The position numbers and the translations under genes are program-made. Shown piece by piece: positions 1,149 to 61,011 of a stretch of 62,409 bases of DNA. Location of the stretch: IMG/VR virus record IMGVR_UViG_3300012931_000021, positions 1 to 62,409 of that record; one strand, given 5' to 3'. Below the pieces are notes generated by a model. That model was not told the origin of the DNA, did no database searches, and worked only from the letters and a program-made list of their open reading frames with translations. Position 1 is the first letter of the stretch. The number at the start of each line of letters is the position of its first letter. The DNA is from a virus (Duplodnaviria > Caudoviricetes).

Positions 1149-2240
1149 ATGACAAACAATACGAACGTTATCACAATGAACGAAATCGTCAACAGAGTTG
1201 AGAAAGACAGCATTGGCAAGATAGACCTCACAGCAAGTACATTTAGAATGGCTGACAATGGTTTGCTTTGGGTAGGTGGAGAAGATGGTGAGTGTCAGCA
1301 AATGAAACTTAATAGGCATGCAGCTTCACAGATGTTCTCAAAGTTCAATATGCCAGGTAAATATTTCAGCAATTTGCTTCAGGAAGACCCAGAATTGACA
1401 GCTTATCACTTCAATAAGGTAGTTGATAAGACACCACACGAAGACCTGTTTATACGTACCAAAACAGGCATCCATACCGACGTTGATGATGAAGGCAACG
1501 AAGAGACTGAAGATAGTAGCATCCCAGTAATACGTGGAGTCATGAGTGATATGTACGCAGTGCTTGACAACGACATGGTAGTAAGAGGACTGCAGGCAGT
1601 TATAAACAAATTTGGTAATGATTATCAAATAGTGACTCATCATCTTGATGATAGAAGAATGCATATAAGGATATTGTTTCCAACTACAGCAAGACAGTTT
1701 GGATACACAAAGGATAATCTGGGGGATATTCTTCAGGTGGGAATTGACATAGTGAACAGTGAAGTTGGAATCAGCAGCATGAATATAGCAGGACTGGTTT
1801 GGAGACTTATTTGCACGAATGGTTTACGCAGGATGGATAGAGGAGAAACATTCATACAAAGACACATATATCTTGACACTCCGACATTCTATAATCGTAT
1901 TGGACATGCAATGACAAAGGGAATACAATCTGGTATAGATACTATGGTTAACTTTTCAGAAAGCAAAAAGTTTGAACTTATCAGACCAATGCAATCAATG
2001 CAGGTTATAGGCAAGCAGTATGACCTTACCAAGACGATAGTTGAAAGAGCACAGGAAGTTTGGGAACATGATGCTACAGCATATGGTGTAATTAATTCTT
2101 TCACAGCAGCAGCAAGAGGACTGGACAATGAAAGACGCCTTGAACTTGAAAAAGTTTCTGGACGCTTATTAACCCTCAATACTAAGGACTGGCATAGGAT
2201 TGATACATTAGCAGAGGAATATGAAGTTATAGAGGATTGA
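1149..2240 (+). CDS. DUF932-family phage/plasmid protein
   Basis: NSEVG...RLICTNG motif; GAGGAG RBS before ATG 1149. Confidence 0.75.
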   Translation: MTNNTNVITMNEIVNRVEKDSIGKIDLTASTFRMADNGLLWVGGEDGECQQMKLNRHAASQMFSKFNMPGKYFSNLLQEDPELTAYHFNKVVDKTPHEDLFIRTKTGIHTDVDDEGNEETEDSSIPVIRGVMSDMYAVLDNDMVVRGLQAVINKFGNDYQIVTHHLDDRRMHIRILFPTTARQFGYTKDNLGDILQVGIDIVNSEVGISSMNIAGLVWRLICTNGLRRMDRGETFIQRHIYLDTPTFYNRIGHAMTKGIQSGIDTMVNFSESKKFELIRPMQSMQVIGKQYDLTKTIVERAQEVWEHDATAYGVINSFTAAARGLDNERRLELEKVSGRLLTLNTKDWHRIDTLAEEYEVIED

Positions 2241-2361
2241 GAATGCATATAATAGGAGGTCGCTATCTGTGACCTCCTAGAATTGATTTAAGCCAACCAA
2301 AAATTTTGGTCGGAAATATATCTGACCCAGACACAATTGATTGAACAGAGGGGGTTATGTG

Positions 2362-2895
2362 ATGGATGCAAACGAGATAAACAAAATTTTTGAAACAAAT
2401 TTTAATTGGATTCGTTCCGCTGCAGGACATTGGCTTATGAAACTTACAATAGATTGGAATATTCACTTCTTTGACTTTGATGATTTGGTGCAGATTAGCT
2501 CTTATGCAATGTTCAAAGCAATCACAACCTATAAGGATTCGAAAGGAGTTAAGTTACAAACATGGGTACATACTCATATAAACAATGAAATTCTAAGTGA
2601 AGTCAGAAAGTTCAATAAAAACGTTAAAGCAGTTAGCCTCACAACACCTGAAGACGACAGTACAGAATTCGAGTTGATAAGTTATGAAAATGGCTATGAC
2701 CAGATTGAAGATAACATGTTTGCAGGCAATATCAAGAATATACTTACTGAGCGTGAGTATCAAGTGCTTTGGATGTTTGCTGTTGAAGGTATGAGTCAAA
2801 CAGATATCGCACCAACAATAGGAGTCCAACAGCCACAAGTTTACCGCATACTCAAGAATATTAGGAAAAAAGTAGAAGATTATGTTAATGCTTAA
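2362..2895 (+). CDS. Sigma-70 family RNA polymerase sigma factor (SigF/SigG-like)
   Basis: Region 2 DDLVQ..KAITTYKDSKGVKLQTW; region 4 HTH SQTDIAPTIGVQQPQVYRI. Confidence 0.85.
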   Translation: MDANEINKIFETNFNWIRSAAGHWLMKLTIDWNIHFFDFDDLVQISSYAMFKAITTYKDSKGVKLQTWVHTHINNEILSEVRKFNKNVKAVSLTTPEDDSTEFELISYENGYDQIEDNMFAGNIKNILTEREYQVLWMFAVEGMSQTDIAPTIGVQQPQVYRILKNIRKKVEDYVNA

Positions 2896-2922
2896 ACATA
2901 ATATATAGGAGGTGGAGGAGTT

Positions 2923-4581
2923 TTGCCAGCTATAGTACTCATTGAAGACAAGTTTTGTATAGGTGGTCTTGACCAGGATGGTAGGGATGTTGCAAAAAAC
3001 ATCCCTGGGGCTAACTGGAGTAAAAGATTGATGACATACACTTGGCAACCTGAATACAAAACGTACAAAACTATCAAACAGCAATTTCCTGGAATAAGTG
3101 TATCAGATGCTGTACAAAAGTGGGTTGATAAGTTTTTAGCAGCATGTGAAAAATTTGAAACCATGAAATCCGTTGCTGACGTGACACTGCCAGTCGAATT
3201 GGGTAATAAATTGTTTCCATATCAACGCGTTGGCACTAATTTTATGTATAAAGCAAAGCGTGTTATAAATGCTGACGACATGGGACTTGGAAAAACTCTT
3301 CAGGCAATATGTGCTTGCCAAATGACAGGAAGTGACTGCATCTTAGTAGTCACTCTTAACTCATTAAAATTTACATGGGAAGCAGAAATCAAAAAGTGGT
3401 CAGATTACAATGTTACTGTGCTTGATGGTAGCAGGGAGAAAAAGGAAAAAGCTATTAATGGTTTTCAGGGTGGATTCCTGATTGTGAATTATGAGTCATT
3501 TAAGCTGTTTGAGACGCTTTGGGAATGTGAGTGGGATGTGGCTATATTTGACGAAGCACATAGACTTAAAAATCCAAAGGCACAGCATACTATAGCTTGT
3601 AAACACGTTAAATCTAATTGGATGTGGCTTCTTACTGGTACTCCTATGGAAAATGCTCCTGGGGAACTTTGGAGCTTGTTAAACATATTGTTTCCGGAAA
3701 CTTTCAGCAGTTATTGGAGATTTGTTGACCAATATTGTGTGGTAAATGAAATCGAATCAGATGATAAGACTATACGTATACCTGGATGTGCAAGTTATCC
3801 AAAAGAAGTGCATCAACTGCTTAGTCCTATAATGATACGACGTATCAAAACTGATGTTTTAAAGGATTTGCCTGATAAGCTGTATCAAAACATACTTGTG
3901 GAACTTGATGCTGCAGACAGAAAAGCATATCATGATATAATCAAAGAAATGATTGTAGTCTTAGACAATGGTGATGTTGTAGCAACACCTACTGTTATAG
4001 CACAGTATACGCGTTTGAAGCAGGTATGTATTTCGCGCGAATTATTAGGTAGCAATCGTACCAACGTTCATAGTGCCAAACTTGATGCACTGTCAGAATT
4101 AGTGGAATCGGCAATACCATTTCATAAAATGGTCATCTTTACAACACAACTTGAGGCTTTAAAATTGGTTAAGGACAGATTATTTCGAGACCATGGTATA
4201 ATACCCTTGGAGATATCTGGAGATATTACAACGCCAAATAGGCAGCATAACATTGATTTGTTTCATAATGACCCAGAATCTAAAGTATTCGTTATAACTG
4301 TTAAATCTGGTGGAGTAGGGTTAAATCTAACTCCTGCAGATATATGTATCAACCTTGATAAACATCCAAATCCAATGGTAAACTTGCAGGCAGAAGATAG
4401 GCTGCATAGAATAGGTCAAAAGAAAAATGTTACAGTTTATAGCATCATAGCGAAAGATACTCTTGAAGAGTACATTGAAAACATGCTTATGAGGAAAGAA
4501 CAACAATTCAATCACATTGTAAATGGTGAACTTACATTCATTACAAAATATTTAGATACTTTAATGAAGCGTTGGAATTAA
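2923..4581 (+). CDS. SNF2-family helicase
   Basis: ADDMGLGKT, DEAH, LTGTP.EN, GGVGLNL, QAEDRLHRIGQ motifs. Confidence 0.95.
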   Translation: MPAIVLIEDKFCIGGLDQDGRDVAKNIPGANWSKRLMTYTWQPEYKTYKTIKQQFPGISVSDAVQKWVDKFLAACEKFETMKSVADVTLPVELGNKLFPYQRVGTNFMYKAKRVINADDMGLGKTLQAICACQMTGSDCILVVTLNSLKFTWEAEIKKWSDYNVTVLDGSREKKEKAINGFQGGFLIVNYESFKLFETLWECEWDVAIFDEAHRLKNPKAQHTIACKHVKSNWMWLLTGTPMENAPGELWSLLNILFPETFSSYWRFVDQYCVVNEIESDDKTIRIPGCASYPKEVHQLLSPIMIRRIKTDVLKDLPDKLYQNILVELDAADRKAYHDIIKEMIVVLDNGDVVATPTVIAQYTRLKQVCISRELLGSNRTNVHSAKLDALSELVESAIPFHKMVIFTTQLEALKLVKDRLFRDHGIIPLEISGDITTPNRQHNIDLFHNDPESKVFVITVKSGGVGLNLTPADICINLDKHPNPMVNLQAEDRLHRIGQKKNVTVYSIIAKDTLEEYIENMLMRKEQQFNHIVNGELTFITKYLDTLMKRWN

Positions 4582-59910: not shown

Positions 59911-59919
59911 TGAGAGGAG

Positions 59920-60213
59920 ATGAGACAATTGGAAAAATCATTCGAACAATTTCTTGTTGATGAGATAAAGTTGATTCGTACAGGTGTAGATGACTTATCG
60001 ACACAAGTGACTGACTTACACCTGAAGATGACTGAATATGTCCCTAAGTCACAGGTTGAGGATATTCAAAAATCTATGAGTAAGAGATGTGATGATTGCA
60101 AAGAAAGCAATGCTGGAGACCATAGGTCATTAACAGGATGGATAATTGGGGCATATCTGTTCATAATGACAACTGCAGTAACACTATTTACAACACTGTT
60201 TAACAAAAAGTGA
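59920..60213 (+). CDS. Coiled-coil + C-terminal TM lysis-cassette protein
   Basis: C-terminal hydrophobic helix; upstream of the endolysin. Confidence 0.6.
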   Translation: MRQLEKSFEQFLVDEIKLIRTGVDDLSTQVTDLHLKMTEYVPKSQVEDIQKSMSKRCDDCKESNAGDHRSLTGWIIGAYLFIMTTAVTLFTTLFNKK

Positions 60214-60237
60214 TAATATAGAAAGGAGAGATTTATC

Positions 60238-61011
60238 ATGGCACACAGAGTTTACATCAGTGCAAGTACACAAAAAGCCAACATCGGAGTAGGACAGTAT
60301 GGCATAGAACAGGACAGAATGCAATTTCTGGCAGACAGAATTAAGTACTGGCTTGAAACACAGAAGGGACAATTTACTGTATTTAGAAATGAGCCAGGAT
60401 GGACACTAAAGAAAACAGTAGACCACTGCAACAGCATGGCATGCGAGATGTTTCTTGACAATCATACCAATGCTGGAGGAATTGAAAAGATTGCAGGTGA
60501 TGGTGGAGCTGAAGGTACTTCAATTTTCTATTCTGGAAAGATGGGCATTGACAGCAACAGTTACAAACTCGCATCAGCAATCTATAAGCATGTAGCACCA
60601 TTGTCACCTGGAAAGGACAGAGGGGTTGACCCTGACACATCTCTGTATGCTTCAGGATTGTATGTCATAAGGAACACTAACCCTCCGGCAACATTAATCG
60701 AACATATCTTCCACACTAACTATGCAGAAGTTGAGTATTATTTGAAACATGTTGATGACTTTGCAAAGGAGACAGCGAAGGGTATATGTGACTATTTTGG
60801 AATCACATGGGTGGAAGCATGTGTATCTTCAGGTGGTATCCACGTAGTTATAAATGGTGTTGACATTGATGATAAAATGGATGTAAAAGCATCAATGGTC
60901 AATGGCAGAGTAGTAGTGCCTGTGAGATATATAGCCGAAGCTTTGGGTTGTAGTGTCACATGGAATAACAAGACAAAGACAGTAACTTTGACAAGCAAGG
61001 AGGTGAAATAA
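60238..61011 (+). CDS. Endolysin: Amidase_3 + copper-amine-oxidase-N-like cell-wall-binding domain
   Basis: E, HTNA, LIE..FH; NGRVVVPVRYIAEALG..V.WN..TKTV. Confidence 0.88.
   Translation: MAHRVYISASTQKANIGVGQYGIEQDRMQFLADRIKYWLETQKGQFTVFRNEPGWTLKKTVDHCNSMACEMFLDNHTNAGGIEKIAGDGGAEGTSIFYSGKMGIDSNSYKLASAIYKHVAPLSPGKDRGVDPDTSLYASGLYVIRNTNPPATLIEHIFHTNYAEVEYYLKHVDDFAKETAKGICDYFGITWVEACVSSGGIHVVINGVDIDDKMDVKASMVNGRVVVPVRYIAEALGCSVTWNNKTKTVTLTSKEVK

Follow-up and report, generated by a model that had tools for sequence, protein, structure and literature searches.

The whole 62,409-nt stretch of DNA from an uncultured phage analysed here (hereinafter the window) carries many copies of a sharp, asymmetric word, Y-CTTCAGGTG, which is selected at the DNA level and evenly spaced along each strand separately. 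We tentatively read the word as a selected signal resembling Chi, dependent on orientation and recognised by a DNA-tracking helicase-nuclease, probably that of the host, a reading that is plausible and still short of probable. Chi is a short word that switches RecBCD/AddAB-type helicase-nucleases from DNA degradation to DNA preservation and recombinase loading.

The 10-mer TCTTCAGGTG has 21 exact copies in the 62-kb window, compared with a mean of 0.14 and a maximum of 2 in 100 dinucleotide shuffles. An earlier note had listed all 21 with correct coordinates and strands and had placed the number far above chance, which is confirmed. The core CTTCAGGTG occurs 26 times (17 on the + strand and 9 on the − strand), with 0.5 expected from dinucleotide shuffles. 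Specifically, the 26 comprise the 21 exact copies, four CCTTCAGGTG variants that were also noted earlier and are real, and one further variant with A (ACTTCAGGTG; 31104, − strand). The octamer TTCAGGTG, with 30 copies or about 1 per 2.1 kb, tops the octamer ranking of the genome. It is preceded by C in 26 of 30 copies and then by T in 21 of these 26; both positions add specificity, so the word is effectively 9–10 nt long. The flanks show no conservation. Apart from Y at position 1, single-mismatch variants of the 10-mer occur 0–1 times each, and variants of the word in the window do not form a weaker class of sites. Such a sharp, all-or-none word is the pattern expected for recognition by an enzyme.

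The excess survives codon-aware nulls (500 shuffles each, in which the three intergenic sites were kept as they are). The 26 observed copies compare with an average of 5.2 and at most 10 when synonymous codons are shuffled, and with an average of 2.8 and at most 6 when codon order is shuffled. The word is carried by 24 of the 40 peptide windows able to encode it, compared with 2.07 expected. Because the excess survives codon-preserving shuffles and most compatible peptide windows are used, the data support strong selection at synonymous positions and a DNA-level signal, as had been proposed, that is neither a codon nor a composition artefact. Sites had been described as lying in different reading frames, both orientations and intergenic DNA; all frames are used, in sense and antisense, except the one that needs a TGA stop. 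A greedy gene call places 23 of the 26 sites within ORFs (15 sense, 8 antisense) and three between genes. Hand correction of the ORFs at 9850–10122 and 30850–31194 leaves 22 coding sites (14 sense, 8 antisense), since the copy at 9867 is probably intergenic as judged from its hand-read flanks. Site orientation in the window is independent of the direction of transcription.

The leftmost copies (exact TCTTCAGGTG unless stated otherwise) are sense in a DUF932 gene at 1131–2240 (1730–1739, +, reading L-Q-V), antisense in a sigma-factor gene at 2341–2895 (2645–2654, −, reading P-E-D) and sense in a gene at 5214–5927 (5716–5725, +, reading F-R). A CCTTCAGGTG variant (8879–8888, −) is antisense in the AAA_24 gene at 8314–9342. 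The copy at 9867–9876 (−) lies directly past the DUF669 gene, adjoins a terminator-like hairpin and has a 19-nt extension in common with the copy at 31127. The primase-helicase gene holds two copies; the one at 11660–11669 (+) is missing from relatives, and the DNA of the one at 13047–13056 (+) is identical in the relatives G006 and G007 despite a protein identity of only 49%. Further copies are antisense in the MazG/NT5C gene (15633–15642, −) and sense in a gene at 17267–18340 (18132–18141, +). In the DnaE gene, the copy at 21364–21373 (+) is kept in G006 and G007, and the antisense copy at 22914–22923 (−) is not conserved. Near the position of the copy in the ribonucleotide reductase gene (25973–25982, +), some 6 nt off and in other codons, G006 carries a separate copy.

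The copy at 30118–30127 (+) is intergenic within a leftward-transcribed block. The 13-bp inverted pair at 31100–31140, which had been noted as a hairpin, is real and lies inside the + strand ORF 30884–31147, not in intergenic DNA. Its left arm is the ACTTCAGGTG variant (31104–31113, −) and its right arm an exact copy (31127–31136, +); the opposite-strand copies (31104/31128) are 24 bp apart. The copy at 33139–33148 (+) is at the end of the DUF4326/SLOG gene, and is followed by the longest stretch free of copies on both strands (33149–39451; 6.3 kb), which contains the large terminase gene (37762–39150). An intergenic copy (39452–39461, +) lies ahead of the peptidase M15 gene at 39478–39894. 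The copy in the head gene at 43684–44319 (43900–43909, +) is kept in L033 only, that at 45058–45067 (−) is antisense in the gene at 44352–45575, and that in the major capsid gene (46349–46358, +) is not conserved in L009. The copy at 49776–49785 (−) is antisense at the end of the gene at 49367–49795. The three remaining CCTTCAGGTG variants lie on the + strand, in the gene at 49810–50355 (50083–50092), at the junction ahead of a 615-aa tail gene (53339–53348) and in an 874-aa tail gene (57711–57720); the segments around the first and the third are paralogous. The last two copies are antisense in the gene at 59920–60213 (60019–60028, −, reading H-L-K) and in the endolysin gene, which encodes Amidase_3 and Cu_amine_oxidN1 domains (60826–60835, +; common to G414).

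The same word recurs in relatives of the window, with 11, 8, 3, 6 and 4 copies in G006, G007, G008, G009 and G010, respectively, 12 in G413 and 8 in G414; for five relatives with the word the count covers the whole record. Only 5 of 25 alignable sites of relatives are common with the window; of the 9 window sites that can be aligned, 3 are kept in a relative. Non-shared sites are 2–4 bases away from the homologous sequence, not one. Density is kept while site positions turn over. More distant relatives have different words of the same kind, namely CTGGTACG in G416 and G418 and GCGAGCGC in G426 and G427, giving three lineages with three words and 17–26 copies each. Both strands are used in all four (13:10 in G416, 10:9 in G418, 13:8 in G426 and 9:8 in G427), and G416 has opposite-strand copies 62 bp apart. 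The word of G416 and G418 has an A/C-only tract of 6–10 nt upstream, which Chi biology does not predict.

The genes common to the three lineages are virion genes only (portal, capsid, tail), and no common non-structural gene was found (blastp E ≤ 1e-3). The replisome of G416, with a family A polymerase and Prim-Pol/D5, is unrelated to that of the window, and G426 and G427 have no replication gene in common with the window. G416 also encodes an ATP-dependent DNA ligase, a sigma-like protein, QueC and GTP cyclohydrolase I, the latter two being genes of the 7-deazaguanine pathway.

Spacing is regular on each strand of the window. The 17 + strand sites have a CV of 0.385, and none of 20,000 random sets was as regular; the 9 − strand sites have a CV of 0.50 (P = 0.03). 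Similarly, the 13 + strand sites of G416 have a CV of 0.327 (P = 5e-5), and its two strands combined are not significantly regular (P = 0.17). The + strand of G427 is also regular (CV 0.389, P = 0.008), and regularity is not significant in G418 and G426. The + series of G416 crosses both a leftward gene block (4.5–26 kb) and a rightward block (34–64 kb), and its sites are 9 sense and 13 antisense to genes; therefore, transcription is not the reader. The per-strand regularity and the spacing of G416 through opposite transcription blocks speak for a reader that moves along DNA and is specific for orientation, and for this reason exonuclease attenuation of the Chi type fits best among the functions offered in the earlier note.

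Sixty window proteins were scanned for families, with about 40 small ORFs outside the scan; many small genes of the window are without annotation. Recombination-type genes encode a PD-(D/E)XK nuclease, an AAA_24 protein, which we take to be Sak4-like, DUF669, a SNF2 helicase and a Holliday-junction-resolvase-like protein. The window also encodes three paralogous HNH endonucleases, a sigma-like protein and a single protein in which a DnaG-type zinc ribbon and a Toprim domain are joined to a helicase. Among the 60 proteins scanned, no family of integrases or repressors and no clear methyltransferase or Vsr-like gene was found. The only methyltransferase hint is at 43684–44319, which matches a PHROG family so labelled and also head-protease families.

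The reader of the word would be an enzyme that enters the duplex at a free end and moves along it, with Chi as the nearest analogue. On entry into the cell, the phage DNA would probably be linear and circularly permuted, so that any position could be an end; the permutation is suggested by a T4-type terminase and by an assembly overlap of 123 bp. With a correctly oriented copy every few kb per strand, degradation from either end would be halted after no more than a few kb, and recombination and circularisation would be promoted. The reader would most likely be a host enzyme, because lineages with different words have no common non-structural gene; self-recognition by a phage-encoded reader, as suggested earlier, is not supported by gene content. 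Known Chi sequences are 5–8 nt long, compared with 9–10 nt here, and to our knowledge the word matches none of them.

A report on Chi-enriched phages gives 23–50 Chi sites each for LLS, P1 and Pseudomonas phage MD8; no octamer is more frequent than Chi in these genomes, and LLS and P1 have one site per roughly 1.9 kb (PMC12315714). The window resembles these phages in that an asymmetric short word tops the octamers with roughly one copy per 2 kb, greatly exceeds chance in a way that codon usage does not explain, and has sites that come and go in evolution (PMC12315714). Unlike in these phages, the window word is 9–10 nt long, uses both strands (17:9) and is evenly spread, whereas Chi in LLS and MD8 lies nearly all on one strand and clusters towards one end (PMC12315714). 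The window phage also has its own recombination genes, whereas the Chi-rich phages of that report are without them (PMC12315714).

Among 401 genomes of one phylum (that of a Desulfosporosinus MAG), none is enriched for the word to near the phage density, and none has the very high density of DNA uptake sequences. The highest density, 134 copies in a genome of 4.1 Mb, corresponds to roughly one per 30 kb. In two MAGs with distant endolysin homologues, the octamer occurs 161 times against 113 for the control and 22 times against 32. The Pseudomonas Chi-like octamer is absent (0 copies) from the capsid relative Pseudomonas phage KPP23, which counts against the Chi reading.

It is rather unlikely that the word is instead bound by a sequence-specific protein that each phage lineage encodes (a monomeric regulator, for example, or a stoperator-like repressor, or a protein that organises the nucleoid or packaging), with the different words belonging to diverged readers. 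Such a protein would suit an asymmetric, sharp site with a stoperator-like number of about 20–26 copies per roughly 60-kb genome, stable inside a clade and replaced between clades, as well as the one inverted pair, the small unannotated genes and the presence of a sigma-like protein in both the window and G416. However, a static binder does not predict regularity separate for each strand, and the three lineages have no common non-structural gene at the blastp threshold above. The stoperators of Cluster A mycobacteriophages are likewise asymmetric and spread across genomes of roughly 50–60 kb in about 25–30 copies, similar to the ~20–26 here. They are oriented with transcription and mostly between genes, in temperate phages with a known repressor, whereas the window sites are mostly coding (22–23 of 26), in any frame and in both orientations relative to genes, with neither a repressor or integrase among the 60 proteins scanned nor a weaker-site class. 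The earlier argument against a stoperator-like function, drawn from mixed orientation, is supported.

A site-specific nickase as the reader, which would leave local breaks in one strand of the virion DNA, as known from T5, phiKMV-like phages and Pseudomonas phage tf, is improbable. A report on tf describes the 9-mer TACTRTGMC, which is nicked at all of its 14 copies and has few single-substitution variants, and slightly different nick words in relatives (PMC3517423). The nick sites of tf, T5 and phiKMV-like phages are also sharp, asymmetric 9-nt words (about 14 copies per genome) that are placed independently of gene direction and vary among related phages; they are strictly single-strand, whereas window copies are on both strands, some only 24 bp apart (PMC3517423). 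The three HNH endonucleases of the window and the ligase of G416 would fit a nickase. However, 9 of 26 window copies are on the other strand, both strands are used in G416, G418, G426 and G427, and nicking of the opposite-strand copies 24 bp (window) or 62 bp (G416) apart would make a double-strand break. In addition, G418 has its word without an HNH match, as do G426 and G427.

Decidedly improbable is that the word has no function and builds up by biased mismatch repair or gene conversion, comparable to very-short-patch repair, or that it marks the target of a base-modification or defence enzyme. The all-or-none pattern and lineage-specific words fit an enzyme of variable specificity, and G416 has the 7-deazaguanine pathway genes; however, mutational drive does not yield per-strand even spacing, non-shared sites differ by more than one base, and being a modification target would not explain enrichment. 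A target of the phage methyltransferase, as proposed earlier, finds no clear support among the 60 window proteins scanned. Very improbable is a site at which lagging-strand priming, or some other step of the replisome, preferentially starts or is loaded on one template strand in rolling-circle replication, for which even one-strand spacing of 1–6 kb independent of transcription and the zinc ribbon-Toprim-helicase protein would speak, but known DnaG-type primases read 3–5 nt, and G416 with its unrelated replisome and G426/G427 with no common replication gene all show the phenomenon, which weakens the primase/helicase loading suggested in the earlier note.

One copy had been thought to form the core of an HH3 ribozyme. 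This link is not supported, as no Rfam Hammerhead_3 match at E ≤ 1 was found anywhere in the window, and the sole ribozyme-like Rfam match, Hammerhead_II at 154–223, is below threshold (33.4 bits vs 37) and overlaps no copy. The window sequence is present in Logan contigs of two wetland runs.

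The 10-mer TCTTCAGGTG, which the earlier note described as a selected signal dispersed over the genome, was confirmed at each of the 21 positions reported for it, whereas shuffles expect 0.14 copies. Its core, CTTCAGGTG, occurs 26 times in the window, 17 times on the + strand and nine times on the − strand, and the octamer TTCAGGTG (30 copies) is the commonest of the genome. The word is sharply defined. Positions 2–10 show essentially no variation; the first is T in 21 copies, C in four and A in one, giving the candidate word Y-CTTCAGGTG, and every other single-base variant of the 10-mer occurs at most once. 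The 17:9 excess on + is not compositional, since by hand estimate a + strand with G>C and A>T would be expected to carry more copies in the other orientation, at a ratio of about 1.4 to 1.

The number of copies is also well above that produced by codon-preserving shuffles, which bears out the selection proposed in the earlier note. In 500 shuffles of synonymous codons within genes, copies averaged 5.2 and never exceeded 10; in 500 shuffles of codon order, they averaged 2.8 and never exceeded 6. The word is carried in 24 of the 40 peptide windows whose amino acids allow it, compared with 2.07 predicted from codon usage. Sense copies are read as L-Q-V, x-S-G or F-R and antisense copies as x-P-E or H-L-K; the sole unused frame is the one that needs a stop codon. 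An excess beyond both the codon shuffles and the peptide-window expectation indicates that selection acts on the DNA.

No position is conserved within 30 nt on either side of the copies, so the word has no second promoter-like element and is not part of a larger repeat or a mobile element. A bipartite promoter for the phage sigma-like factor (2341–2895) is rejected because there is no second conserved element within this distance and because sites lie mid-gene and antisense. Two copies, at 9867–9885 (−) and 31126–31144 (+), have an identical 19-nt stretch that reaches 9 nt past the word; the former adjoins a terminator-like hairpin and the latter belongs to an inverted pair. In addition, a paralogous segment of the tail genes at 49810–50355 and 55557–58181 includes a word copy (50060–50092 and 57688–57720), and these two copies may stem from one duplication.

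The window is a complete IMG/VR virus record of 62,409 bases with a GC content of 38%, and its terminal overlap of 123 bases gives a circular unit of 62,286 bases, on which spacing was computed. The 17 + sites are separated by gaps of 1.0–6.3 kb with a coefficient of variation (CV) of 0.385, a regularity reached by none of 20,000 random sets. The nine − sites are also evenly spaced (CV 0.50, P = 0.03), and all 26 sites taken together are somewhat regular (CV 0.606, P = 0.004). Regular spacing, a question raised in the earlier note, is thus a property of each strand. Neither strand has a copy between 33.1 and 39.4 kb, which is the longest such interval and contains the gene for the large terminase.

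Sixty window proteins were annotated with Pfam and PHROGs, with about 40 small ORFs left out. Nearly all genes are on the + strand, including those at 30850–31194, the exception being a small leftward block near 28–30.3 kb. The annotated proteins include an SNF2 helicase, a PD-(D/E)XK nuclease, an AAA_24 protein, a DUF669 protein, a DnaG-type primase fused to a helicase, a DnaE-type polymerase, ribonucleotide reductase, ThyX, MazG/NT5C, RNase H, a resolvase-like protein and three paralogous HNH endonucleases of one family, phrog_3377 (10574–11050, 19259–19825 and 36304–36615, the third only 103 aa long). Two short-chain dehydrogenases, a T4-type large terminase (37762–39150), portal, capsid and tail genes, and an endolysin with Amidase_3 and Cu_amine_oxidN1 domains were also found.

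Megablast of 24 kb of the window against cultured phages gave no match, and no relative was found for the large terminase in 185,579 species genomes or for the primase-helicase in viral contigs. Protein-guided searches of IMG/VR recovered fragments of close relatives, with identities of 66–76% for terminase, 64–66% for DnaE and 63–66% for endolysin. Counted over whole records, CTTCAGGTG has 11 copies in G006 (28 kb), 8 in G007 (19 kb), 3 in G008 (11.7 kb), 12 in G413 (21.5 kb), 8 in G414 (16 kb), and 6 and 4 in G009 (10.6 kb) and G010 (8.2 kb), which may overlap each other; the reversed control word has none in any of them. In G006, G007, G413 and G414, CTTCAGGTG is the top 9-mer.

The conservation that the earlier note expected of a selected signal holds for the word, which is present in relatives at a kept density, and fails for most of its positions. 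Among nine window sites with an alignable homologous position, three (13047, 21364 and 43900) are kept in at least one relative and six are not. Of the sites in G006, G007, G413 and G414, 25 can be aligned to the window, which has a copy at five of these and lacks one at 20; 14 further sites are unalignable. At site 13047, all 10 bases are identical in a relative although the protein is only 49% identical, and at site 25973 the copies in the window and G006 are about 6 nt apart, at different codons. Density is conserved; position is not. A scan of viral contigs for two close copies of the word matched at least 120 stretches. Among the matches listed, copies are at one place only in 57 of 80 stretches, and the highest density is that of L238, where 14 same-strand copies within 4 kb look like a repetitive gene. 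Such a scan is insensitive because same-strand copies avoid each other.

More distant relatives carry other words. G416 (64.5 kb, 99% complete, GC 35%) and G418 (57.7 kb) are 44–46% identical to the window in portal, 47–49% in capsid and 55 and 47% in endolysin. Neither contains a copy of the window's word. They contain instead CTGGTACG, preceded by a 6–10 nt tract of only A and C, in 23 copies in G416 (13:10) and 19 in G418 (10:9), which occupy every frame in both sense and antisense orientation, and of which five are common to both genomes. The 13 + sites of G416 are evenly spaced (CV 0.327, P = 5e-5) and all its sites together are not (P = 0.17); in G418, no significant regularity of spacing was found. 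The + series of G416 continues unchanged across a leftward gene block (4.5–26 kb) and a rightward one (34–64 kb). Seven of its 10 − sites lie within 500 bp of a + site (hand count), a pattern that the window does not show. A third word, GCGAGCGC, occurs in 21 copies in G426 and 17 in G427 (59 kb, 98% complete, GC 43%), in all frames and both orientations; the + series is regular in G427 (CV 0.389, P = 0.008) and not in G426. In G430, a 31.7-kb fragment (L217–L218, GC 41.5%), CTTCAGG has 20 copies and TTCTTCAGGC five. This word resembles that of the window, differs at the 3' end, and may be a diverged dialect.

A comparable dispersed word is absent from the capsid relatives G422, G423, G428 and G429 and from the cultured phages KPP23, Ottawa, ValentiniPuff, Laroye and RDJL Phi 1. 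These show instead iterons in clusters, intergenic motifs that resemble promoters, or modest excesses at the codon level. TAAAACGAA of Pseudomonas phage KPP23 (L344–L347) is enriched and was rejected as an analogue because its copies form two iteron clusters (7 copies at ~9452–9610 and 5 at ~40529–40917) resembling the arrays of an origin or a regulatory region. Also rejected were CCCCCGTTAG of Arthrobacter phage Ottawa, which is promoter-like, intergenic and on one strand, GGTGGTGG of G425, found mainly within one glycine-rich gene, and CCTCGAAG of G422/G423, only 3–4 times over Markov expectation. A different and striking phenomenon is seen in G421, a capsid relative (L190–L192, 59.6 kb, GC 55%), in which the palindrome ACGGCCGT has 159 copies, about one per 375 bp, mostly inside a longer palindrome of ~18–20 nt, covering the whole contig with irregular spacing.

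At a blastp threshold of E ≤ 1e-3, no non-structural phage gene tracks the presence of a word. The gene cluster for the SNF2, PD-(D/E)XK, AAA_24 and DUF669 proteins is common to the window clade and G416/G418, and its genes are also present in the word-less phages G001, G002 and G415. The phrog_3377 endonuclease has one homologue in G416 and none in G418, and the genes that G426/G427 have in common with the window are confined to portal, capsid and tail. G416 replaces the DnaE polymerase and DnaG-type primase with a family A polymerase and a Prim-Pol/D5 primase-helicase. The lack of a shared non-structural gene favours a host enzyme that would vary from host to host, or else a separate, unrelated reader for each lineage. 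The polymerase of G416 (L094 8891–14579; L095 6447–9876) is fused to a uracil-DNA-glycosylase-like domain; the same loci encode QueC and GTP cyclohydrolase I (7-deazaguanine pathway) and an ATP-dependent ligase, and the DNA of this phage is probably modified.

The host is weakly indicated as Bacillota by the atlas neighbours of the endolysin, which are viral or Bacillota, and by the count of AGGAGGTGA (12 copies in the window). An endolysin profile run on 185,579 species genomes gave matches only 32–37% identical, in a Desulfosporosinus MAG and a Limnochordales MAG. None of 401 genomes evenly drawn from the phylum of the former comes near the phage's word density of one per 2.4 kb; the highest density among them, 134 copies in 4.1 Mb, is about one per 30 kb. 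In sequencing runs, the window sequence occurs only as assembled contigs from wetland metagenomes, with no RNA run listed.

Taken together, the exactness and asymmetry of the word, its selection at synonymous sites, its turnover at constant density and its even per-strand spacing irrespective of transcription point to an orientation-specific signal for a machine that moves on DNA. We infer from the assembly overlap and the terminase type that the genome is circularly permuted. With ends anywhere, evenly spaced copies in both orientations would protect it from a nuclease entering at an end, and such protection may be what selected the spacing. That this signal is Chi-like is possible, though we hold it somewhat short of an even chance. 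Chi is the best analogue: phages LLS, P1 and MD8 have 23–50 copies of Chi, which is their commonest octamer (PMC12315714), as TTCAGGTG is in the window. Several points count against a Chi-like role: the word is long for a Chi, the phage has recombination genes of its own, the G416/G418 word is preceded by an A/C tract, no host with the word was identified among the 401 genomes, and KPP23 has no copy of its host's Chi-like octamer and seven of the reversed control.

An unlikely alternative is a previously undescribed self-marking system, in which ~60-kb tailed phages of low-GC hosts would carry a lineage-specific bar code of 8–10 nt through their genes, evenly spaced per strand. Marked DNA would be spared or processed, and unmarked DNA destroyed, by a tracking nuclease or translocase that is either phage-encoded or a host enzyme put to the phage's use. 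Word and reader would then change together between lineages, like restriction specificities. Nicking as in Pseudomonas phage tf, whose 9-mer is nicked and has 14 copies, all on one strand (PMC3517423), agrees with the sharpness of the word and disagrees with its distribution on two strands and with opposite-strand copies 24 bp apart. Loading of a phage primase, one of the roles suggested in the earlier note, is unlikely because the replisomes of word-bearing phages are unrelated, that of G416 having a family A polymerase and Prim-Pol/D5. RNA polymerase as reader is excluded by the G416 series, which crosses opposite gene blocks.

The window's word is of the same kind as those of Chi-rich phages, nick-site phages and stoperators, namely genome-wide selected short words in phage DNA, but it lacks at least one defining feature of each. 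In open-access text, we found no description of the CTTCAGGTG or CTGGTACG words or of evenly spaced per-strand words in phages. By marking DNA for a tracking enzyme, short words such as Chi determine the fate of linear DNA in a cell: destruction, recombination or sampling by defence systems. To our knowledge, words of this type are known experimentally from only a few bacteria. Three sharply defined candidates emerge here from phage genomes alone: Y-CTTCAGGTG, CTGGTACG with its A/C tract, and GCGAGCGC. Each is maintained at about 20 copies, and the copies of the best two are evenly spaced per strand. If they are the Chi of uncultured Bacillota, phage genomes would let host recombination signals be read, and the words could link phages to hosts. 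If not, these phages or their hosts would have a hitherto unrecognised reader of DNA.

Three minor elements were observed elsewhere in the window. A sub-threshold match to the type II hammerhead ribozyme at 154–223 (+; 33.4 bits against a gathering threshold of 37, E = 0.006, full model length) overlaps no word copy. A tRNA match at 7413–7487 (+) by Rfam (52.6 bits, E = 1.9e-8), where ARAGORN predicts none in the window, may represent an atypical tRNA or an element resembling one. The palindrome GGGACT-NN-AGTCCC has copies with T runs after them at 29711–29726 and 30390–30440; these lie in and near the AT-rich divergent region between the end of the leftward block (~30332) and the start of the rightward genes (30624), and are candidate operators or terminators of an early switch.
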